Assembly (NCBI GenBank): GCA_963836205.1
Contig: CAWIIV010000006.1
Location: 224,001 to 288,000, forward strand
Length of the DNA: 64,000 nucleotides
Origin: an uncultured Acidimicrobiia bacterium
Lineage (GTDB): Bacteria > Actinomycetota > Acidimicrobiia > Acidimicrobiales > AC-14
Direction of reading: 5' to 3'
The notes under the pieces were generated by a model. That model saw only the letters and a program-made list of their open reading frames with translations, ran no database searches and was not told where the DNA came from. Positions 15,442 through 62,653 of this stretch are shown here, piece by piece. Numbering within the stretch: position 1 is the stretch's first letter; every line of letters starts with the position of its first letter. Both the position numbers and the translations under genes were made by a program.

Positions 15442-16861
15442 CTAGCCGCCACCGCCCGGGTCGGGCTCAGGCTCGGGTGCGCCGCCACTGCCACCGCCGT
15501 CGTCGAAGGCGGACAGCGCCTCGGCGGTGGCGGGGTCGAGCGGGCTGAGCACGCTGCGGTTGTAGGTGACCGCGGGCGGCGTCGCCAGCGGGCGGAACTC
15601 GGGCGCCACCGGCGGGGCGGTGGGCTCAGGGGCGGCGTATGCGACCGGCGTGAAGGTGTGCTCGGTGCGGCGGACCACCGCGCCCAGGGCGATGGCCAGC
15701 AGGGCCAGGCCGACGAGCGGCGCCAGGTTGGAGCCGGTGCGGGCCAGCGGAGGTGTGACGACGGTGGGCGGCCGGGTGGTGCTGGTGGTCGTGGTGGCCA
15801 GCGTGCTGCCGGCCGGAGGCACCGTGACGACCGGGGCCACCGTCGTGCTGGTGGTGGTGGTGGCCGCGGGAGCGATGGTGGTGGTCGTCGTGGCCGGGGC
15901 GGCCGTGGTGGTGACCGCCACCGTCGTGGTCGTCGTGGCCGGCGCCGTCGTGGTGGTCGTGGTGGCCGGCGCCGTGGTCGTCGTGGTCGTCGCGCCGGGG
16001 ATCGTGGTGGTGGTGGTGGTCGTCGTCGTCGGCGCGACCGTCGTGGTGGTCGTGGTCGTCGGCGGCACCGTGGTGGTGGTCGTGGTCGGCGGCACCGTGG
16101 TGGTGGTGGTCGTGGTCGGCGGCGCGGTGGTGGTGGTCGTGGTGGTGGTCGGAGCCACGTTCACGTCGGGGCCGGTGGCGGCGCAGTTGGACTCGGCCAG
16201 GATGATCTCGACCACGCCGAGGAGCGAGCCCAGGCCGGGCAGCACGGTGATGTGGGCGCCACGCACCTGGATGCTGGTGCTGCCGATGGCGTTGGAGATC
16301 GTCTGCTCGTTGAGGGTGACCTCGAGGATGCCGGGCAGGACGATGGAGGTGTTGGCTGCCGGGGAGCCGAGGAGCGGGTTGCCGCCCAGGACGCCGCCGA
16401 CGATCTCGGTGAAGCCGCTGGAGCCGTTGCCGTTCGAGGTGCACTGCGTCTCGATGGCGTCGATGGCGAGCGAGCCCAGGCCGACCACGACGTCGGCCAC
16501 GCTGGCCCGGCTGTGGGCGAAGCCCAGGTGGCCCGCGGGGTCACCCGCGGCGACGCCACCGCCGTCGGTGGAGCCGGTGAGCACGCCGAGGCTCAACAGG
16601 CCGGGGATGCTGAGGGGCACCGCCGCCTGGGTGGTGGGGCCGTAGCTGTCGACCGGCTCGGTGGCCGAGCCGGATCACCAGCGGCGTCGGCGCGATCAGC
16701 GAGCCGAGGAGGCCCGAGTTGACGGATGCTCCGAAGGCGCTACCGGAGACGGAGTCGACATCGGCCTGGGCCGATGGTGCGACCGCGGCCAAGATGATGG
16801 CGACGATCGGAATTCCGGCGATTGCGGCCGCTCGGAACCTTGAGGTTCCCCCTGCGCTCAT
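15442..16861 (-). CDS. Choice-of-anchor-P-like surface protein with Thr-rich stalk and LARTG; frameshift near 16675
   Basis: Signal peptide ending AQA; VTLNEQ and AESNC; frames join if one base is removed, matching the paralog. Confidence 0.75.
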
Positions 16862-17032: not shown

Positions 17033-18281
17033 TTACGGACGTTGGTCACCGTCGTCGTCGAACGCCGACAGGGCGTCTCGGGCGGCGGCGTCGAGCGGGT
17101 TGCGCCGCACCCGTCTGCGGGCGGCGGAGGGCCGGGCCTCGACCGGGTGGAACTGGACCGGCGCCGGCGGGCCTGACGGGACCGAGGGCGACTGCGTGGC
17201 CGGCAGGAAGCCGTCACTGCCCCGGCGGACGATCACACCCAGGGCGATGGCCAGGAAGCCGATCGCAACCATGGGCATGGAGCTGGTGCCGGTGCGGGCC
17301 AGCGGCGGCGGCGTGGTGACCGGGGGGCTGGTGGTGGACGTGGTGGTGGTGGGCGGCAGGGTGCTGCCGGCCGGCGGCACCGTGACGACCGGAGCGATGG
17401 TGGTGGTCGTGGTGGTGGTGGCCGCCGGGGCGACCGTCGTGGTGGTGGTGGCCGGCGCCGTGGTCGTGGTGGTGGTGGCCCCGACGGCGGTCGTGGTGGT
17501 GGTGGCGGGAACCGTCGTCGTCGTCGGTGGTGGTGGTGGTGGGGGCCGTGGTGGTGGTGGTCGAGGTGGTCGGGACCACGTTGACGTCGGGCCCGGTGGC
17601 GGCGCAGTTGGACTCGGCCAGGACGATCTCGACCACGCCCAGGAGCGAGCCCAGGCCGGGCAGCACGGTGATGTGGGCGCCCCGGACCTGGATGCTGGTG
17701 CTCCCGATCGAGTTCTGGATCGTCTGCTCGTTGAGGGTGACCTCGAGGATGCCGGGGAGGGTGAGGCTGGTGTTGGGCAACGGCGAGGTGATCAACGGGT
17801 TGCCGCCGAGGACTCCCCCGACGAGCTCGGTGAAGCCGGTGGAGCCGGTGCCGTCGGAGCGGCACTGGGTCTCGAGGGCGTCGATGCTGATGGCGCCGAG
17901 GGCCACGACCACGTCGGCAACGCTGGCGCGGGCGGCCGCGAACCCGAAGTGGCCGGCTGGTTCGTCGGCGGCGACGTCGCCACCCTCGACCCGGGCGTTG
18001 AGGACGCCGACGCTGAGCAGGCCGATGACGTTGACCGGGACCGACGACTGGGAGGTGGGGCCGAAGCTGTTGACGGGTTCGGTGGCGGTGCCGGAGGTGA
18101 GCGGGGTCGGCGCGATGACTGCGCCCAGCAGCGACGACTGGAGCGTGGCGCCGTAGGCGCTGGCGTTGACCGAGTCGACGTCGGCCGTCGCCGATGGGGC
18201 GAGCATGGCCAAGAGGATCGCCGCGATCGGGATGCCCGCGATGACGGCAGCCCGAATCCTCGACGTTCGAGAATCGATCAT
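17033..18281 (-). CDS. Paralogous choice-of-anchor-P-like LARTG protein; frameshift near 17525
   Basis: Near-identical core to 15442-16861; indel in ACC/ACG Thr-codon run. Confidence 0.75.
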
Positions 18282-18817: not shown

Positions 18818-19056
18818 CGAACTGGTGACAGATTCCGTCGCCCAGGAGCCCCGAGCCTCACCGGTTGCGGCGGCGGATCCGAACTGGTGACGGATTCGGG
18901 GGGTGGGACCCCCGGATTTGTCACCGGTTCGCCTGGGGATCCGAACTGGTGACGGATACGGGGGTAGGACCCCGGATTTTGTCACCGGTTGGCGGCGGCG
19001 GAGCCGAACGGGTGACGGATACGGGGGGTGGGACCCCCGGGATTTTGTCAGCGGTT
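18818..19056. repeat. Four tandem copies of ~52-bp palindromic element, period 62-63 bp
   Basis: CGAAC(T/G)GGTGAC at 18818, 18880, 18942, 19005, each followed 27-30 nt later by a GTCACCGGTT-like arm. Confidence 0.9.
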
Positions 19057-20490
19057 GGCGGCGGCCAGCTCGCGGAGGCGGGCGGTGACGGACTTGCCGT
19101 CGGCCTTGCCGGACGTGGCGGCCATGACCTTGCCCACGAAGAAGCCGGCCAGCCTGGCCTCGCCCTCGCGGAACCGGGCCCATTCCCCCGGGTGGTCGGC
19201 CACCACCTGGTCGACCACGCCGGCCAGGGCGTCGGACCCGAGGGCCTCGAAACCACGGGCCCGGGCGATGGCGGCCGGGTCGCCGCCGCCGGCCAGCACC
19301 TCCGCCAGCACCTGCTTGGCCTGGGTCGAGGTGAGGCGGCCGTCGCCCTCCATCACCAGGACGGCGGTGAACGAGGCCACCGGGACATCGGCCGGAGCCA
19401 CGTGGGCCGCGGCCACCTCGTTGGCCGCCCGGTTCAACGCCAGCCGGGGGTCGGCCCCACCCGCCACCGCGGCCGACACCAGCTCGTCGAGGCCCAACGC
19501 CACCACCGTGGCCACCGCCTTGTCGTCGCCGGCCACACCGGCGGCCGCGGCCAGCGACCCCCGACGGTCGGCGGGCAGTGCGGGCAGGCCCGCCCGCACC
19601 GCGTCCCGCCATTCGTCGGACGGCACCAGCGGCACCAGGTCGGGCTCGGGGAAGTAGCGGTAGTCGTAGGCCTCCTCCTTGGAGCGCATCGACGACGTGC
19701 GGCCCGCGTCCTCGTTCCAGTGGCGGGTCTCCTGCACGACCTTCTCCCCCGCCTCCAGCAGCCCGATCTGGCGCCGCACCTCGTAGTCGACGGCCCGCCC
19801 CAGGGACCGAACCGAGTTGAGGTTCTTGATCTCCGCCCGAGTACCCAACACCGAAGACCCCAAGGGCCGCACCGACACGTTGGCGTCGATGCGCAGCGAC
19901 CCCTCCTCCATGCGGGCGTCGGACGCCCCGATGGCGACGAGGATCGCCCGCAACTCGTTGACATAGGCGCGCGCCTCGTCGGCCGAGCGGATGTCGGGCT
20001 CGCTGACGATCTCCACCAGCGGCACGCCGGCCCGGTTGTAGTCGACCAGGGCGTAGTCGGCCCCGTGGATGCGCCCGCTCTCGCCCACGTGGGTGGTCTT
20101 GCCCGTGTCCTCCTCCATGTGGGCCCGGGTGACGCCGATGCGGGTGCCGTCGGGGAGGTCGAGGTGGCCGCCCACGTTGATGGGCTGGTCGTACTGGCTG
20201 ACCTGGTAGTCCTTCGGCATGTCCGGATAGAAGTAGTTCTTCCGGTGGAAGATCGACGGCCGCACCTCGCAGTGCAATGCCGTGCCCACGGCCATGGCCA
20301 GCTCCACCGACCGGCGGTTGAGCACCGGCAGCGACCCGGGCAGGCCCAGGCAGACAGGGCAGACGTTGGTGTTGGGCTCGTCGCCGAAGGCGTTGGGGCA
20401 GCCGCAGAACAGTTTGGTGGCGGTGGCCAGCTCGCAGTGGACCTCGAGTCCGATCACGGTCTCCCACGCAGTCGACACCGTTGTGGTCAT
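19048..20490 (-). CDS. gatB: Asp/Glu-tRNA amidotransferase subunit B
   Basis: [29 protein letters not shown]. Confidence 0.97.
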
Positions 20491-39313: not shown

Positions 39314-40288
39314 TCAGCCGAGGGGGGCGAAGCCGCCGCCGTCAGCGGGGGGCACCGGTTCCGGCGCTACCGGCGGACGCCCGGGCTCCGCCACGGACGG
39401 CTGGCCGTCCTCTGTCGGTGCCGGAGCCCGCCACGATGTCGGCTCCGCATCCGGGGCCCGGACCGGGGCCTCCAGAGCTGGCCGCACGGGCGGCGATTGC
39501 GGTGGAACCGCCGGGGCCGATGGCGACCGGGGCGTCGGCGGCCGAGGGGCCGTTCGTAGTTGATAGACCGCGGCCACGCAGATCAACCACCAGGCGGGGT
39601 GGACGCCCGCAGGCGGCATGGGCCGGACCAGGGACGACAACGGGTCGGCCAAGCCGACGGACAGTTGGTAGCGCACCTTGTAGTCCAACCCCGGCGCCCG
39701 CAGGAGGAAGGCCCGCACCGCCCGGTAGTCGTCGGCCGTCATCCCGCTCACGTCGAGACTGGCGGCGTAGGACTCCAGCCCCGCCGGCACCGAGAACTCG
39801 GCCGCCTGGGGCGGTGGCAGGCCGGTGCGCTCCCGCAGGACCATGGTGCCCGCCACCAGGTCGCCCAGCCGTTGGTTGTTCTTCGTGGCCAGCACCGAGA
39901 TCACCGCCGCCGCGCCCGACGTGAGGAAGAAGTCGACCATCCCCAGCGCGGCCCGGATCGCGGCGTGGCGGAAGCGCACCGGCGCCCCCTCGACGGTCAC
40001 CACCCGCAGCCCCATCGCCGCCTTGCCGAGGGTCCGCCCCCGCCAGAGCGTCTCCATGGCGATCGGGTACCCGAAGATCAGGGCGAAGGCGAGGAGGAAG
40101 AAGAGGGCGATCCCGACGCCGCTGAAGTCGGCGGCCGACAGGCCGATGCCGATCAGGAGCAGGGCGAAGCCCAGCAGCGACTGCACCACCCAGTCGATGA
40201 GGAGGGCGACGAACCGCGACCCGACGCCGGCCGGCTGGAGGTCGAGCGGCACCGCCTCCGGTGTGACCACCGCCGGCGTTTCCATCAC
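39314..40288 (-). CDS. RDD family protein
   Basis: TPEAV, RFVALLID, GRTLGK, QRLGDLVAGT. Confidence 0.9.
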   Translation of the reverse strand: MMETPAVVTPEAVPLDLQPAGVGSRFVALLIDWVVQSLLGFALLLIGIGLSAADFSGVGIALFFLLAFALIFGYPIAMETLWRGRTLGKAAMGLRVVTVEGAPVRFRHAAIRAALGMVDFFLTSGAAAVISVLATKNNQRLGDLVAGTMVLRERTGLPPPQAAEFSVPAGLESYAASLDVSGMTADDYRAVRAFLLRAPGLDYKVRYQLSVGLADPLSSLVRPMPPAGVHPAWWLICVAAVYQLRTAPRPPTPRSPSAPAVPPQSPPVRPALEAPVRAPDAEPTSWRAPAPTEDGQPSVAEPGRPPVAPEPVPPADGGGFAPLG

Positions 40289-40308
40289 GACGTACGGTAC
40301 AGACAGCG

Positions 40309-41286
40309 GTGGACGTCGACTCCTACATTCGCACCAACCAGCCGGTCTGGACCCGGCTCGACGAGCTCACCGCCCGCGCCAGCCGCGGCGTCGGCCGGCT
40401 GTCGGCCGCCGAGCTCGACGAGCTGGTCAAGCTCTACCTGCGGGTCTCCACCCACCTGTCCTACGCCCGCACCTACTACCGCGACCCCTCCCTCACCGCA
40501 TCCCTCACCGGTCGGGTGGCCCGGTCGAACGCGGTCGTCTACGGCACCCGGTCCCGCACCCTGCGGGCGGTCGGCCGGTTCTTCGCGGTGAGCTTCCCCG
40601 CCGCCCTGTGGCACATCCGCCACTTCGTGCTGGTCAGCGTCGCCCTGCTCTTCGTCCCCGCCCTCGCCTTCGGCATCTGGGTCGCCAACTCGCCCGCCGC
40701 CCTGGAGGCCACCGGCCCCGCCGCCGTCCGGGAGGCCTATGTCCAGGAGGACTTCGAGGACTATTACTCGTCGGCCTCCGCCGCCGCCTTCGCCTCCCAG
40801 GTCTTCACCAACAACGTGCGGGTGGCGATCCTGGCCTTCGCCGGCGGCATCGCGTTCTGCCTGCTCACCGCGGCCATCCTCATCTACAACGGGGCCAGCC
40901 TGGGCGTCGCCGCGGGGCTGTTCGCCGCCGTCGGCCAGTCGCCCAAGTTCTGGGGGCTGATCCTCCCCCACGGGCTGCTGGAGCTGACCGCGGTCTGCGT
41001 CGCCGGGGGCGCCGGCCTGTGCCTGGGCTGGACGCTCATCGACCCCGGCGACCGCCCTCGCGCCGCCGCCCTGGCCGAGGAGGGCCGCCGGGCCATGCTC
41101 ATCGTCGTCGGACTGGTGGTGGTCTTCGGCGTGGCCGGCACGATCGAGGGCTTCGTGACCGGCAGTGGCCTGCCCACGACCGTCCGGGTGGGAATCGGGG
41201 TCGTCGCCGAGGTCGCCTTCCTCCTGTACTTCGTGGGCCAGGGGCGAGCCGTCTACAGCCGGCCGGTGGCCTTGACCTTGAGGTAG
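40309..41286 (+). CDS. SpoIIM-family (DUF95) membrane protein
   Basis: FTNNVRVA, ILPHGLLELT, IEGFVT. Confidence 0.9.
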   Translation: MDVDSYIRTNQPVWTRLDELTARASRGVGRLSAAELDELVKLYLRVSTHLSYARTYYRDPSLTASLTGRVARSNAVVYGTRSRTLRAVGRFFAVSFPAALWHIRHFVLVSVALLFVPALAFGIWVANSPAALEATGPAAVREAYVQEDFEDYYSSASAAAFASQVFTNNVRVAILAFAGGIAFCLLTAAILIYNGASLGVAAGLFAAVGQSPKFWGLILPHGLLELTAVCVAGGAGLCLGWTLIDPGDRPRAAALAEEGRRAMLIVVGLVVVFGVAGTIEGFVTGSGLPTTVRVGIGVVAEVAFLLYFVGQGRAVYSRPVALTLR

Positions 41287-42562
41287 GCGTCGGCCAGGAG
41301 GGGGGCGAGGCGGCCGGGCTCGGCGTCGACGACGGTGGCCCCCATGCCCCGGAGGAGGGCGACCGTGCGCGCCCGGTCGGTGCGGGCCGCCACCGCCGCC
41401 GCCTTGCGGTAGGTGGAGGATGCGTCGGGGGGAACGGCCCCGGCCCACTCGGCCACGTCGGGGTCGGCCACGCTGGCCACGATCACCAGGTGGTGGCGGC
41501 TGAGAAGGGGGAGGACGGGCAGCACCGTCTCCGTCACCGCCTGCTCGGCCAGCTCGGTGAACAGGACCAGCAACGATCGCCGGCGGAAGCGGCCCAGGGT
41601 CGACGCGAACGCGCCCCGGTAGTCGCTCTCCACCAGCTGCGGCTCGAGGGCGTACATGGCCTCGGTGACCCGTCCGAGCTGATCCCGGCCGGCCCGGGGG
41701 GGACGATCGCCCGCACCACCTGGTCGAAGGCCACCAGCCCTACCTTGTCGCCCAGCCGGGAGGCAACTGCCGTCAGCATCATCACCGCGTCCATGGCGTG
41801 GTCGAGGCGGGGGACGTCGGCCACCCGGCCCGCCATCATCCGTCCGCTGTCGAGCAGGAGGAGGACGGTCTGGTTGCGCTCGGCCCGGTACGTGCGCACG
41901 ATCGGCCGGCCGACCCGGGCGGTGGCGGCCCAGTCCACCCGCCGGAACTCGTCGTCGACCGTGTACTCCCGGAGCTGGTCGAACTCGGTGCCGCCCCCCC
42001 GCCCGGGTGCCGACCGCAGGCCGATCTCGAGGATGCGGGCCCGGTCGATGCGCAGCTCCGCCTCCTCCCGCGACCGGAACGGCGGGTACACCCGCAAGAT
42101 GCCCGGCACCCGGAGCCGACCCTGCCGGGCGGCCAGCCGCCAGGGTCCCTCGACCCGCACCACGATCTCGGTGGGCGTGAACTTCCCCCGCCGCCGGGGC
42201 CGGATGGCGGTGCGGGCGGTGGCCCGTCCCCCCGGAGGCACCACGATGCGGGCCCGGCGGGAGGTCGCGCCCAACGATGGCGACAGCTCGTCGGCCAGGG
42301 TGAGGCGCAGGAGGCGATCAGAGGCCGGGTTGCGCACCGTCCATCGCACCTCGGCCTCCCCCCCGAGGGGGACGACCCCCGGCAGGTTTCGTTCGACCGG
42401 GATGGTCGCCGGCCTCGGCGCCCGGGCCCAGTCGACGACGGCCGCCGCCAACAGGGCCACGTCCACCACCCACAGCGCCGCCGCCGGCCACGGCGACGCC
42501 AAAACCACCAGCGACGCCACCGCCGCCGCCGCCACCAGCCGGGCCGTGGGAACGGGCATCAC
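41253..42562 (-). CDS. DUF58 (VWA-like) protein; frameshift near 41690-41700
   Basis: GTEFDQLREY, DWAATAR, LLDSGR; C-terminus YLKVKATGRL in another frame next to a G run. Confidence 0.85.
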
Positions 42563-42567
42563 GCCAT

Positions 42568-42710
42568 CGAACTGGTGACGGATTTGGTGGCTCTGGCAAC
42601 CAAAACCGTCACCGGTTCGCCACGGCCGGCAGTGCGCCTCACCGCGGCATCACGACGTCGAACCGGTGACGGAAAAGGGGGCCCTGACGCCCGGAACTGT
42701 CACCGGTTCG
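42568..42710. repeat. Two copies of the 52-bp palindromic element (42568-42619, 42659-42710)
   Basis: CGAAC(T/C)GGTGAC-N28-GTCACCGGTTCG. Confidence 0.9.
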
Positions 42711-42734
42711 AGCGCAGGCGGCGGGCAGTGGCCC

Positions 42735-43688
42735 TCACCGCGGAACGGGCACCGCGGCCAGGACGCCGTCGAGGACGCCGTCGGCGGTGACGCCCTCCAG
42801 CTCCACCTCAGGCCGCAACGAGATGCGGTGCCGCAACGCCGGCTTCGCCACCGCCTTGACCTCGTCGGGGGTGACGAACGACTTCCCGGCCAGGAACGCC
42901 CACGCCTTGGCCGCGGCCAGCAACATCACCGCGCCCCGGGGCGACGCGCCCAGGGCCAGCGACGGCGACTCCCGGGTCGCCCGCACGATGGCGACGATGT
43001 AGGCCTGGACCTTGTCCTCCACCGCCACCAGTCCCACCGCCCGGCGGGCGGCAGCCAGGTCGGCCACGCCGGCCACCGGCGAGATCCCCAGGGTGGCGAC
43101 GTCGTGGGGGTTCATCCCTGCGTGGTGGCGGGCGACGACCGCCTGCTCCTGCTCGGCGGTGGGATAGGGCACCGACAGCTTGAGCATGAAGCGGTCGAGC
43201 TGGGCCTCGGGCAGGGGGTACGTGCCCTCGTATTCCACCGGGTTCTGGGTGGCCACCACCACGAACGGGTCGGGCAGGGGCCGGGTGTCGCCCGCCACCG
43301 TCACCTGCCGCTCCTCCATGGCCTCCAGCAGCGACGCCTGGGTCTTGGGTGGGGTGCGGTTGATCTCGTCGGCCAGCAGGAGGTTGGTGAACACCGGCCC
43401 CGGTCGGAACCGGAAGTCCCGTCCCTCGAGGATCACCTGGCCGGTGACGTCGGACGGCATGAGGTCGGGGGTGAACTGCACCCGCTTGAAGTCGAGGTCG
43501 AGCGACGCCGCCAGCACCTTGACCAGCAGCGTCTTGGCCACGCCCGGCACCCCCTCCAGCAGGACGTGGCCCCGCACCAGGAGGGCGACGACCAGGCCGG
43601 TGAGCACCGCGTCCTGGCCGACGACGACCTTGGCCACCTCCTCCCGGATGCGCAGCACGGCCGCCCGGGGGTCGTTCGCGTCAGCCAA
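42735..43688 (-). CDS. moxR: MoxR-family AAA+ ATPase
   Basis: GVPGVAKT, FTPDLMPSD, DEINR, ATQNP; TTG start after GAGGAGG. Confidence 0.95.
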   Translation of the reverse strand: MADANDPRAAVLRIREEVAKVVVGQDAVLTGLVVALLVRGHVLLEGVPGVAKTLLVKVLAASLDLDFKRVQFTPDLMPSDVTGQVILEGRDFRFRPGPVFTNLLLADEINRTPPKTQASLLEAMEERQVTVAGDTRPLPDPFVVVATQNPVEYEGTYPLPEAQLDRFMLKLSVPYPTAEQEQAVVARHHAGMNPHDVATLGISPVAGVADLAAARRAVGLVAVEDKVQAYIVAIVRATRESPSLALGASPRGAVMLLAAAKAWAFLAGKSFVTPDEVKAVAKPALRHRISLRPEVELEGVTADGVLDGVLAAVPVPR

Positions 43689-44817
43689 CCGGTCCTCCTC
43701 CTCGGACCCGGCGGCGGATGGACTCCACCGAGTGCGCCAGGGCCACCAGGCCATCCTCGTTCGCCGGGCGTCCCCCCGCCAGCACGCCCAGCACCTCGTC
43801 CGCGGTCAGGTCGCCGAATGCGCCGGGCGAGGCCGACGCCGCCAGCGCGCCCGCCACCACCTCGGCCGGGGTGGCCGGCGGCAACCCGAGGCGCTCGGCC
43901 AGCCACCGGCGCAGGTCGTCTCGCAGCACCGACGCCGCCTGCTCCCGGCCCTTGGCCCGCTGGAGCAGCTCCCCCACCGCCACCACCAGCTCCGATCCCG
44001 CCAGCGGCACCGGCTGGGGTTCGAGCACGGGGCGACCCAGGCGGCGCGCCCGCCACAGCACGAGCACCCCGAAGGCCACTGCCAGCTGCAGCACGGCCAG
44101 CTCCCAGCGCCGGGCCACCAGGTCGAGCAGGCCCTTCTCACCTTCGCCCGGTGCCGGCGGGCGCAGCACGACAACCCGCTCCGACGTCGTCGGCGCCAGC
44201 AGGGTCACCGCCAGCAGGCCGTTGTCGGCGTCGCCGAGGTTGGCGTTGACCAGGAAGCCGGCCCCCCCGACCGCCACCACGGTGCCGTCGCCGATGGGGA
44301 CGACGACCAACCAGGCCTCGTCGTCGGAACCGGCCCGGAAGCACCCGGTAGCCCCGTCCGGCACCGCCTGGAGGATCGCCCCGGGGACGTCGACCCGCTG
44401 CACCTGGCGCAGGGCGGGCACGGTGCAGTCCCGCCGCAGCTCGGGTTCGAGGAACACGAATTCGGCTCCTCGGACGGGCACCACCGGGCTCAGGGGCGAG
44501 GACACGTCGGTCACGACGAGCGTTCCGCCGGCCGCCACCCACGCCGCGACCTGTTCCCGGGTCGCGTCGTCGAGGCCGTCGTCCAACAGCAGGGCGGTGG
44601 TGGCCGACGGCCCCGGTGCCTCCGACTGCACCGACACGTCCGCCCCCAGCAGGCGGAGGGTGTCGACCAGGGCCTTGGTGCCGGTCGGACCGGTCGACGA
44701 CGGGTCGAGCGGGGGACCCTCGGCGGGCGGGGCGCCGCCGACCAGGGCCACCGCCACGATGGCCGCCACCACCGCCACCCACGGCCACCACACCCGGAGT
44801 CGGTCCCGGGTGATCAC
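43681..44817 (-). CDS. DUF4350 domain membrane protein
   Basis: LDPSSTGPTGTKAL, N..L..ADN, RRLG; cluster context. Confidence 0.8.
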   Translation of the reverse strand: MITRDRLRVWWPWVAVVAAIVAVALVGGAPPAEGPPLDPSSTGPTGTKALVDTLRLLGADVSVQSEAPGPSATTALLLDDGLDDATREQVAAWVAAGGTLVVTDVSSPLSPVVPVRGAEFVFLEPELRRDCTVPALRQVQRVDVPGAILQAVPDGATGCFRAGSDDEAWLVVVPIGDGTVVAVGGAGFLVNANLGDADNGLLAVTLLAPTTSERVVVLRPPAPGEGEKGLLDLVARRWELAVLQLAVAFGVLVLWRARRLGRPVLEPQPVPLAGSELVVAVGELLQRAKGREQAASVLRDDLRRWLAERLGLPPATPAEVVAGALAASASPGAFGDLTADEVLGVLAGGRPANEDGLVALAHSVESIRRRVRGGGPVG

Positions 44818-50700: not shown

Positions 50701-52335
50701 TCATCCGTCGACCAACTGGAACCAGTAGAAGCCGTGGCCACCGAGGGTGAGCAGGTAGGGCAACTCGCCCACCTTGGGGAACGGCACCCGGCCGAACAGC
50801 TCGATCGGGGTCTTGCCCGCGAACCGGCCCAGTTGCAGCTCCACCGGCTGGGCGAAGCGACTGAGGTTGTTGACGCACAGGATGGTCTCGTCCCCCCGAT
50901 GGCGAAGGAAGGCCAGCACCGACGGGTTCTCCGCCGACAGCACCTCGAAGCTGCCCACCCCGAACACGTCGGAGTGCTGCTTCCGCACCCGCAGCGTCCG
51001 CTGGAGCCAGTGCAGGAAGGAGCCGGGGTCGCGCAACCCGGCCTCCACGTTGACCGATTGGTACCCGTAGACCGGGTCCATCAGGGGCGGGAGGTAGAGC
51101 TGGGCGAAGTCGCCCTTGCTGAAGCCGGCGTTGCGGTCGGGCGTCCACTGCATGGGGGTACGTACCCCGTCGCGGTCGCCCAGATAGATGTTGTCGCCCA
51201 TCCCGATCTCGTCGCCGTAGTAGAGGACGGGGCTGCCGGGCAGGCTGAACAGCAGCCCGTGGAGCAGCTCGGACACCCGCCGGTCGTTGTCGACCAGGGT
51301 GGCGAAGCGGCGGCCGATGCCGATGTTGCGCTTCATCCGGGGGTCCTTGGCGTACTCCGCGTACATGTAGTCGCGCTCTTCGTCGGTGACCATCTCGAGG
51401 GTCAGCTCGTCGTGGTTGCGCAGGAAGATCCCCCACTGGGCGCCGTCGGGGATGTCGGGGGTCTGGGCCAGGATCTCGGTGATCGGGTAGCGCTGCTCCC
51501 GGCGCACGGCCATGAACATCCGAGGCATGAGCGGGAAGTGGAAGGCCATGTGGCACTCGTCGCCGCTGCCGAAGTAGTCGACCACGTCGGTCGGCCACTG
51601 GTTGGCCTCGGCCAGCAGGACGGTGTTGGGGTGGGTCGACTCCACCTCCTTGCGCAGGCGCTTGAGGTAGTCGTGGGTCTCGGGCAGGTTCTCGCCGTTG
51701 GTGCCGTCGCGCTCGAAAAGGTAGGGGACGGCGTCGAGGCGGAACCCGTCGAGGCCGAGGTCGAGCCAGAACCGCACGACGTCGAGGATCGCCTGCTGGA
51801 CCTCCTCGTTGTCGAAGTTGAGGTCGGGCTGGTGGCTGAAGAACCGGTGCCAGAAGTACTGCTGGCGGACCGGGTCCCACGACCAGTTCGACCGCTCGGT
51901 GTCGACGAAGATGACGCGGGCATCGGGAAAGCGCTGGTCGTCGTCGTTCCAGACGTACCAGTCGGCCTTGGGGTTGGTGCGGTCCTGGCGGGACTCCTGG
52001 AACCACGGGTGCTGGTCGCTGGTGTGGTTGATGACGAGGTCGGCGATCACCCGCATCCCCCGCCTGTGGGCCTGTTCCACCAGCTCGACCACGTCGGCCA
52101 GGTCGCCGTACTCGGGCAGGACGGTGAAGAAGTCGGAGATGTCGTAGCCGCCATCCCGCAGAGGTGACTGGTAGAAGGGCAGCAGCCAGAGGACGTCGAC
52201 GCCGAGCCACTCGAGGTAGTCGAGCTTCTCGGTGAGGCCCTTGAGGTCGCCGGTGCCGTCGTTGTTGGCGTCGAAGAAGCCCCGGGTGAGGACCTCGTAG
52301 AAGACGGCCTTCTGGTACCACCGCTCGTCACTCAC
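50701..52335 (-). CDS. treS: Trehalose synthase
   Basis: GFRLDAVPYL, AEANQW, FLRNHDELTLE. Confidence 0.96.
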   Translation of the reverse strand: MSDERWYQKAVFYEVLTRGFFDANNDGTGDLKGLTEKLDYLEWLGVDVLWLLPFYQSPLRDGGYDISDFFTVLPEYGDLADVVELVEQAHRRGMRVIADLVINHTSDQHPWFQESRQDRTNPKADWYVWNDDDQRFPDARVIFVDTERSNWSWDPVRQQYFWHRFFSHQPDLNFDNEEVQQAILDVVRFWLDLGLDGFRLDAVPYLFERDGTNGENLPETHDYLKRLRKEVESTHPNTVLLAEANQWPTDVVDYFGSGDECHMAFHFPLMPRMFMAVRREQRYPITEILAQTPDIPDGAQWGIFLRNHDELTLEMVTDEERDYMYAEYAKDPRMKRNIGIGRRFATLVDNDRRVSELLHGLLFSLPGSPVLYYGDEIGMGDNIYLGDRDGVRTPMQWTPDRNAGFSKGDFAQLYLPPLMDPVYGYQSVNVEAGLRDPGSFLHWLQRTLRVRKQHSDVFGVGSFEVLSAENPSVLAFLRHRGDETILCVNNLSRFAQPVELQLGRFAGKTPIELFGRVPFPKVGELPYLLTLGGHGFYWFQLVDG

Positions 52336-52336
52336 C

Positions 52337-52386
52337 GGATCACAGGGCTCACGGGATCACAGGGCTCACGGGATCACAGGGCTCAC
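52337..52386. repeat. 17-bp tandem repeat x3 (GGATCACAGGGCTCACG)
   Basis: Units start at 52337, 52354, 52371. Confidence 0.95.
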
Positions 52387-52390
52387 CCGC

Positions 52391-54325
<1,935 letters not shown>

Positions 54326-62603: not shown

Positions 62604-62653
62604 CGAACTGGTGACACTTGAGGTCGTCTGGCGACCGGAAGTGTCACCGGTTC
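62604..62653. repeat. Single copy of the ~52-bp palindromic element
   Basis: CGAACTGGTGAC-N27-GTCACCGGTTC. Confidence 0.88.

Follow-up and report, generated by a model that had tools for sequence, protein, structure and literature searches.

How could two neighboring genes stay translationally coupled when a repeat array with two strong hairpins has come to lie between them? The question is raised by the junction of a moxR gene and a DUF58 gene on the minus strand of the window, by which we mean the whole analyzed stretch of 64,000 nt from the genome of an uncultured Acidimicrobiia bacterium. The 172-nt gap from the moxR stop to the DUF58 start holds two copies of a palindromic repeat and is spanned by four mini-open reading frames (mini-ORFs) connected through five GTGA overlaps. 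Sequence comparison indicates that the inserts at this and similar junctions keep the length class (modulo 3) that gives a bridging mini-ORF far above one time in three, despite differing in number, family and length. We consider the finding real and a ribosome relay the best supported of the readings compared: such a relay, likened by arrangement to that of mycobacterial interspersed repetitive units (MIRUs) and maintained by selection, probably bridges the moxR–DUF58 insert.

We re-read and translated the minus strand, and the four mini-ORFs of the original prediction, with lengths of 12, 17, 4 and 27 codons, were reproduced exactly, coordinates included (Table 1). The genes on either side are also what they had been taken for: the upstream product matches Pfam AAA_3 of the MoxR type (E 3.4e-63) and AAA_lid_2 (E 7.2e-24), and the downstream product matches DUF58 (E 5.8e-19). 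They belong to the co-directional minus-strand row DUF4129–DUF4350–moxR–DUF58, which is predicted to be cotranscribed, and the 3' end of moxR reads ...CCG CGG TGA at 42735. We found no promoter-like site at the junction and no terminator-like site or tail at or after the hairpins, and a search of the gap against Rfam returned no family, the two matches being at chance level (E ~0.7). On the sense strand of the 180-nt stretch that carries the chain, the sole stop trinucleotides in any frame are six GTGA, compared with 1.18 ± 0.97 GTGA in dinucleotide shuffles, of which 0 of 5000 reached six. The sixth GTGA, in a hairpin arm, is read through rather than used as a junction; the arm GTG of hairpin 2 is a sense codon within mini-ORF4. 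The RNA of the gap is predicted to fold into two long hairpins at -124.3 kcal/mol (shuffles, -97.9 ± 4.6), with the DUF58 start 7–10 nt beyond a 23-bp stem. That start has no Shine–Dalgarno match, the energy of the duplex with the anti-Shine–Dalgarno sequence being +0.3 kcal/mol. The overlaps, the missing Shine–Dalgarno match and the position beside a stable stem are the sequence prerequisites of termination–reinitiation, by which DUF58 may be started.

Among the checks that the original prediction had named for the relay were a comparison of the junction in relatives and a count of complete chains against dinucleotide-shuffled gaps. For the first, we used eight congeneric genomes (G000, the window's own, to G007; completeness 66–95%). 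All eight carry an insert between moxR and DUF58, made of one or two hairpins or of one to four units of a second repeat family, and they divide into five mini-ORF bridges, two in-frame extensions and one failure. Two hairpins are bridged by the four mini-ORFs in G000 and by a single ORF of 48 aa in G007; one hairpin is bridged by an ORF of 25 aa in G005 and by ORFs of 8 and 19 aa in G001; and the four second-family units of G004 are crossed by one ORF of 94 aa that ends in TGATG. In G002 and G003, each with one hairpin, DUF58 is open back to the arm GTG. The second family (locus L083 in G004 and L084 in G006) has units of ~70 nt with the core CCGCGCAATTAC...GTGAGGGGGC, is unrelated to the hairpin family, and its core has a single match in G000.

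Five further junctions, picked because G000 has a bridge there, were compared in the relatives. Locus C8:172207, where only some relatives have usable flanks, served for empty sites only. Across the six junctions, with G000 excluded, the 38 filled sites comprise 27 bridges, 5 extensions and 6 failures; against an expectation of one-third, 27 bridges of 38 correspond to a binomial P value of 2.3e-6, which is overstated because kin are not independent. Two junctions show the pattern best resolved by length: the stop-to-start distances are 73, 76, 79, 88, 139 and 154 at C24:135988 and 82, 85, 88, 121, 160 and 166 at C17:222008, all of them 1 mod 3. The 5' and 3' linkers at these two loci do not each hold their length modulo 3, although the totals do, and at C17:222008 three genomes have inserts outside this hairpin family. 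The conserved length class at the six junctions lends comparative support to the relay idea of the original prediction. As a separate observation, a third palindromic insert (..GAGTGTGCAAGAACC...GGTTCTTGCACACTC..) has replaced the hairpin family at the C17:222008 ortholog in two genomes (L250 in G004 and L252 in G003) and is bridged by a 29-codon mini-ORF of the same frame class.

The second check, the chain count, also came out in favor of the chains, with a null that proved too lenient. When the whole gap was shuffled with dinucleotides preserved, a complete chain appeared at this junction in 0.3–14% of trials over the eight genomes. Genome-wide in G000, 45 gaps with the element held 9–10 chains where the shuffles gave an expectation of 1.3 and a maximum of 5 in 100 shuffles, and 977 element-free gaps held 48–60 chains with 13–15 expected. 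This null is too easy because, for an insert with NTGA on both sides and few stops, two of three length classes succeed, one with a bridging mini-ORF and the other with a downstream ORF that extends back, open, across the insert. With the shuffle confined to the interior of the window gap, a chain was still present in 83% of trials, and deletions of 1–2 nt were tolerated in 85.5%; neither is informative as a null at this locus because it funnels all three frames.

As whole-gap shuffles ignore the ancestral overlap, we used frame-shifted variants of each gap instead, comparing each real gap with itself after adding 1 or 2 nt in the hairpin loop, so that motifs are kept and only the relative frame is altered. 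The sample was 87 co-directional gaps of ≤400 nt with a hairpin element, 46 from G000 and 41 from three relatives: G002 (45 loci around listed sites, of 55 pattern matches), G003 (35 loci of 73 matches, from all but three of the listed sites) and G004 (32 loci of 188 matches, from the first-listed contigs). Bridging mini-ORFs were observed in 21 of the 87 gaps with 10.5 expected (P < 1e-4). The excess was found in G000 alone (11 observed, 5.67 expected; P 0.0019), in the three relatives (10 and 4.83; P 0.0013), and with one gap per rough ortholog group (19 and 9.83 in 75 groups; P 3e-5). In-frame extensions were not enriched (9 observed, 10.8 expected), and success of any kind was seen in 30 gaps with 21.3 expected (P 0.0011). 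Sixteen of the 21 bridges consist of one mini-ORF and four of two, and the window locus alone has four; its four-ORF relay is the extreme case among the bridges.

The spacing of the repeats points in the same direction. All periods within an array are multiples of 3 in 8 of 12 chain-positive arrays, mostly at 60, 63 or 75 nt, compared with 5 of 31 convergent or divergent arrays (Fisher P 0.0025), which keep the canonical 62 nt; for co-directional arrays as a whole, the number is 17 of 37. Measured from the last arm GTG, the downstream start lies at a distance of 2 mod 3 in 34 of the 70 co-directional cases (chi-square P 0.0175) and in 9 of 24 divergent ones. Periods called by Tandem Repeats Finder (TRF) are also skewed in short co-directional gaps (56, 18 and 44 for 0, 1 and 2 mod 3), but we did not use this as evidence because convergent and divergent gaps lean likewise (23, 14 and 25).

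Table 1. Positions in the window of the moxR–DUF58 junction, its mini-ORFs and repeats, and of other features mentioned in the text
Feature	Position	Strand	Remarks
moxR-type AAA+ ATPase gene, upstream	42735..43754	-	stop TGA 42735-42737; ORF list, Pfam
Mini-ORF1, 12 codons	42700..42738	-	GTG at 42738 overlaps moxR stop; ends at TGA of hairpin 1 left arm, inside CCGGTGAC
Mini-ORF2, 17 codons	42650..42703	-	opens at hairpin-arm GTG 42703, runs through hairpin 1
Mini-ORF3, 4 codons (VMPR)	42639..42653	-	opens at GTG 42653; duplicated gene junction
Mini-ORF4, 27 codons	42559..42642	-	opens at GTG 42642, runs through hairpin 2; stop overlaps DUF58 GTG
DUF58 gene, downstream	41534..42562	-	GTG at 42562, then in-frame ATG (MPVPT...); Pfam
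Hairpin copy 1, 50-nt near-perfect palindrome (GAACCGGTGAC...GTCACCGGTTC)	42660..42709	.	pattern search, RNA fold
Hairpin copy 2, 50 nt	42569..42618	.	pattern search, RNA fold
Two-unit tandem repeat, period 91	42555..42743	.	77% matches, 5-nt indel in 5' flank; TRF, alignment
387-codon shadow ORF	40285-41448	-	downstream of DUF58
SpoIIM-family gene	40309-41286	+	Pfam E 5.5e-42
Four-hairpin array	18819-19057		periods 62, 62, 63; between co-directional minus-strand genes
Single hairpin copy	62605-62653		co-directional gap
Second NTGA chain	52336-52390	-	between ORFs 52391-54310 and 50701-52335; hairpin-free
GGT/CGT-rich repeats	15844-16145 and 17398-17570		long imperfect triplet and 24-30-nt repeats; TRF

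In the relay that we propose, a ribosome ending moxR at GTGA would restart on the overlapping GTG, translate through hairpin 1 and melt it, and restart at the arm GTGA and at two copies of the gene junction. After translating hairpin 2 as well, it would terminate at the TGA overlapping the DUF58 start and reinitiate at that point. The locus is a frame funnel: with 50 nt (2 mod 3) between the arm GTG and the DUF58 GTG, each of the three entry frames ends at the DUF58 start or in frame with it. Selection would act on insert length modulo 3, retaining the class with a bridging mini-ORF, and such frame selection implies that the spacer is translated. The benefit could lie in positive coupling, or in preventing out-of-frame read-in and extensions of the N-terminus, and the sequence is compatible with either.

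Several observations weigh against the relay. At the moxR–DUF58 junction itself, the one second-family unit of G006 leaves the frames unconnected (out of frame, a failure); three of five relatives fail at C23:11971, two of them with the upstream stop changed to CTGA or TAG; and two of seven fail at C14:150510, where G004 is counted as a failure but is a bridge under start-based projection. In G000, 32 of the 46 co-directional element gaps have no chain, most of these following CTGA, TAG or TAA stops. Success of any kind in the frame test was only weakly elevated in G000 alone (14 observed, 10.75 expected; P 0.08), because with both NTGA present two of three frames succeed by construction: the successes numbered 14, 13.25 and 5 with 0, 1 and 2 nt added. 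The Shine–Dalgarno matches at chain loci are if anything stronger than elsewhere (-5.7 and -4.1 kcal/mol; P 0.053), and as a separator of chain loci from others, Shine–Dalgarno strength fails in the expected direction. Four successive reinitiations may be inefficient. Furthermore, the relatives were sampled rather than read exhaustively, their genomes are kin and not independent, so that the P values are overstated, and our gene finder was checked against Pfam at a single locus, where it preferred SpoIIM over a longer shadow ORF and Pfam agreed. The finder is a home-made codon log-odds method trained on long ORFs of G000, a draft genome of 4.05 Mb and 71% G+C, in which it called 3541 genes (83% coding).

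The rival that survives best assigns the hairpins a main role at the RNA or DNA level, similar to that of repetitive extragenic palindromic (REP) sequences, through mRNA 3'-end protection, processing, pausing or protein binding, and holds that frame selection only avoids harm, either from out-of-frame ribosomes crossing the DUF58 start or from a hairpin-encoded N-terminal extension. About half of the arrays are convergent, divergent or inside called genes, where coupling is impossible; the stem is strongly conserved with some inner-stem covariation; and extensions are not enriched while failures are depleted. Chain loci often have a Shine–Dalgarno match of their own, which fits a relay whose benefit lies in avoiding harm. 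On the other hand, DUF58 has no such match and starts just past a 23-bp stem, and a terminator-like tail after the hairpins is absent. We hold this rival to be unlikely, if worth serious attention; it moreover amounts to one form of the relay and not to an alternative, since the ribosome would still have to restart at the upstream NTGA.

A second rival is that the chain is a neutral by-product: the element enters 4-nt overlaps, where the duplicated tetranucleotide is required for the survival of both genes, and a GC-rich insert with hardly any stops apart from its own GTGA then yields a chain by default, without translation or benefit. Part of the evidence fits this view. Two of three frames lead to a chain or an in-frame extension as soon as both NTGA are there; most interior shuffles and short deletions of the gap keep a chain, as described above; and the five junctions reduce to two duplicated pairs and one GTGA built into the hairpin arm. 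A by-product does not, however, explain why the mini-ORF class is about twofold above its own frame-shifted variants, in G000 and separately in three relatives, why orthologous sites hold their length class over five to six distinct lengths with linkers that individually do not hold theirs, or why array periods differ between translated and untranslated contexts. We judge the neutral reading improbable. That the mini-ORFs encode functional small peptides can practically be dismissed: the ORFs are open and their start codons well placed for reinitiation, but at moxR–DUF58 the eight genomes have between 0 and 4 of them, 3 to 94 codons long and wholly different in number, length and sequence, and the other five junctions are equally variable, with only the frame conserved.

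The five junctions of the window locus are all exact, as the original prediction had it, but they are not independent events, and five GTGA, taken as a bare count, make the locus look more surprising than it is. Alignment of the two units shows junctions 1 and 4 to be mutual copies and junctions 3 and 5 likewise, while junction 2, between mini-ORF1 and mini-ORF2, is the invariant GTGA of every hairpin arm. Each unit consists of the 50-nt hairpin, flanks specific to this locus and one copy of the gene junction, and the two have diverged. Since they share flanks that are absent from other copies of the family, the whole unit was duplicated in tandem rather than inserted twice. Mini-ORF3 is the seam of this duplication, where GTGATGCC from the DUF58 start is fused to GCGGTGA from the moxR end, which bears out the earlier suggestion that part of the pattern reflects duplication of the gene junction. 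The 5' flanks differ by the 5-nt indel, and this is why the arm TGA falls in frame in unit 1, for a stop and restart, and the arm GTG is a sense codon in unit 2. In both units, the next junction GTG follows the arm GTG at a distance of 50 nt (2 mod 3), so that both paths end on the junction TGA.

The empty sites suggest what preceded the insert. At C14:150510 in G005 and at C8:172207 in G002 and G006, junctions without an insert are plain GTGA overlaps, and filled sites have NTGA at both ends. In G006, the different repeat between moxR and DUF58 is flanked by a 10-nt direct repeat, GTGATGCCCG, which indicates an ancestral ..GGTGATGCCCG.. overlap. Overlaps of this kind, at spacing -4, are the commonest arrangement in G000 (418 of 2359 co-directional pairs in our own gene calls). 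The ancestral moxR–DUF58 state was thus probably a 4-nt overlap (..GGTGATGCC..), into which a hairpin element would have inserted with duplication of the tetranucleotide at both ends. The whole unit would then have been duplicated in tandem between CCG microhomologies, creating mini-ORF3, and the 5-nt indel would later have altered the reading of unit 1. We also considered a third duplication, given the likeness of the moxR end GTGCCCGTTCCGCGGTGA to the DUF58 start GTGATGCCCGTTCC, and rejected it: the C-terminal VPVPR* of moxR and the N-terminal MPVPT of DUF58 are conserved in distant relatives, which have a short spacer and no insert.

The element belongs to a repeat family with a 50-nt core, GAACYGGTGAC-N28-GTCACCRGTTC, a near-perfect palindrome with GTGA in its arm. 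A tolerant pattern found 163 matches in 114 arrays in G000, and the arrays lie in co-directional gaps in 55 cases, in convergent gaps in 27, in divergent gaps in 15 and within called genes in 17; the elements lie mostly 5–30 nt from gene ends. The exact pattern was matched 115 times in G000, 55 in G002, 73 in G003 and 188 in G004, with no matches for the reversed-pattern controls. Within 151 genomes sampled evenly from the order, the family was found in only four: G000, G002, a genome of another genus in the same family, and a fourth with four copies on one contig. That contig, C103 of G123 from another family of the order, has its four copies within 1.2 kb in an otherwise element-free genome, and they could represent transfer or a binning error. 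In the 103 copies with a length of exactly 50 nt, there is hardly any variation in the outer 11 bp, and the inner stem varies with partial covariation. On 287 of 326 strands, the core has no stop in any frame that would break a chain, compared with 192.7 ± 9 when the inner 28 nt are shuffled, which is weak evidence because this shuffle also destroys the stem. Miniature inverted-repeat transposable elements (MITEs) are marked by terminal inverted repeats and by a target-site duplication of fixed length; here, the whole core is one palindrome, and the duplicated stretches at inserts are 3–6 nt for the hairpin family and 10 nt for the second family, with no definable fixed length. A Y1/RAYT transposase (REP-associated tyrosine transposase; PF01797) was found in none of the eight genus genomes (66–95% complete), the control having matched in 6 of 14 known genomes.

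A broader reading is that the family evolved translation transparency. Its arm GTGA, its core nearly free of stops in all six frames and its 62-nt period would make self-propagating NTGA relays that funnel any entering frame; relay arrays would colonize 4-nt overlaps; and the length modulo 3 of DNA without a conserved protein would be under purifying selection. As the second and third families and certain 14- and 17-nt junction repeats would obey the same rule, the rule might be a property of the lineage's operon junctions. We put the probability of such an independent MIRU-like strategy at slightly under even, below that of the relay at moxR–DUF58 itself.

The comparison with MIRUs made in the original prediction was apt. 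According to a 2025 review (PMC12548453), MIRUs insert at start codons and their ORF is coupled at a spacing of -4 nt, probably minimizing the effect on expression, and in a 2011 review (PMC3184786), they are units of 40–100 bp with ORFs overlapping the adjacent genes and with tetranucleotide direct repeats at filled sites. As far as these accounts go, the likeness extends to tandem intercistronic units (here two of period 91, in a family of period 62), to ORFs in the units that share 4 nt with the flanking stop at one end and with the flanking start at the other (five GTGA junctions here, and 21 of 87 gaps bridged), and to tetranucleotide direct repeats at filled compared with empty sites, which are GTGA overlaps in our data. 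The proposed role, a repeat tolerated within an operon with little effect on the downstream gene, is also shared. The senX3–regX3 spacer holds MIRU units of 77 and 53 bp (PMC4213456), both 2 mod 3 as is the canonical 62-nt period. The element nevertheless differs from MIRUs in its near-perfect 50-nt palindromic core with an arm GTGA of its own, in its equal frequency in operons and in convergent and divergent gaps, and in its host: the closest named moxR relatives come from an Actinomycetota metagenome-assembled genome (MAG; 97% aa identity) and then from Acidimicrobiales and Microthrixaceae MAGs (~70–76%), so the host is not a mycobacterium. The MIRU descriptions compared contain no evidence of frame selection such as we report. 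The element may work like a MIRU, and we liken the two by arrangement, not by sequence, without classing it as one. The principle is already known from MIRUs; new are the different element and lineage, the stop–start built into the palindrome arm, and the comparative evidence of reading-frame selection on spacer length. The full texts searched contained no description of this repeat and no frame-constrained REP-like relay.

Palindromic repeats fused in frame to genes are reported for Rickettsia palindromic elements (RPE) and others in the 2011 review (PMC3184786). Our extension class, as in G002 and G003 at moxR–DUF58 with the downstream ORF open back through the hairpin, resembles these; it is not enriched here, and the window locus belongs to the mini-ORF class. 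Ordinary NTGA (-4) termination–reinitiation coupling also has a start overlapping a stop by 4 nt at every junction, but here it would run through one to four nonconserved spacer ORFs and two stable hairpins rather than from gene to gene. With REP sequences and bacterial interspersed mosaic elements of proteobacteria, the family shares short GC-rich extragenic palindromes in more than 100 copies per genome, often arrayed and near gene ends; it differs from the REP/RAYT system in the missing Y1 transposase. To our knowledge, REPs are not described as carrying stop–start overlaps or as frame-constrained.

If the relay is true, selfish or structural repeats can settle in tightly coupled operon junctions without polar effects, and selection can act on the reading frame of "noncoding" spacers that have no conserved product. 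It would follow for genome annotation that gaps with such repeats should not be taken as operon breaks, and that short spacer ORFs ending on a start codon can be functional as acts of translation and not as proteins. The lineage would then be a second natural system, beside MIRUs, for serial termination–reinitiation through strong RNA structure, with plentiful natural variants, in which one and the same junction carries anything from 0 to 7 hairpins.

Other features of the window and of G000 are of minor interest. Downstream of DUF58, a 387-codon minus-strand ORF is the shadow of a plus-strand SpoIIM-family gene, which makes DUF58 the last gene of its row and convergent with SpoIIM. Two further occurrences of the hairpin family in the window, a four-hairpin array and a single copy, have no chain; the upstream stop is CTGA in both. 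Many of the element-free chain gaps of G000 are short tandem duplications of a stop–start junction with periods of mostly 14 or 17 nt, each unit being an NTGA mini-ORF of 4–6 codons (for example C6:176799, C11:138150, C7:194358, C21:16877 and C22:61217). The second NTGA chain of the window consists of a 17-nt tandem repeat (GTGAGCCCTGTGATCCC, ~3.3 copies) on a gene junction, with mini-ORFs of 3, 6, 6 and 6 codons. The two stretches of GGT/CGT-rich repeats are presumably low-complexity coding sequence.

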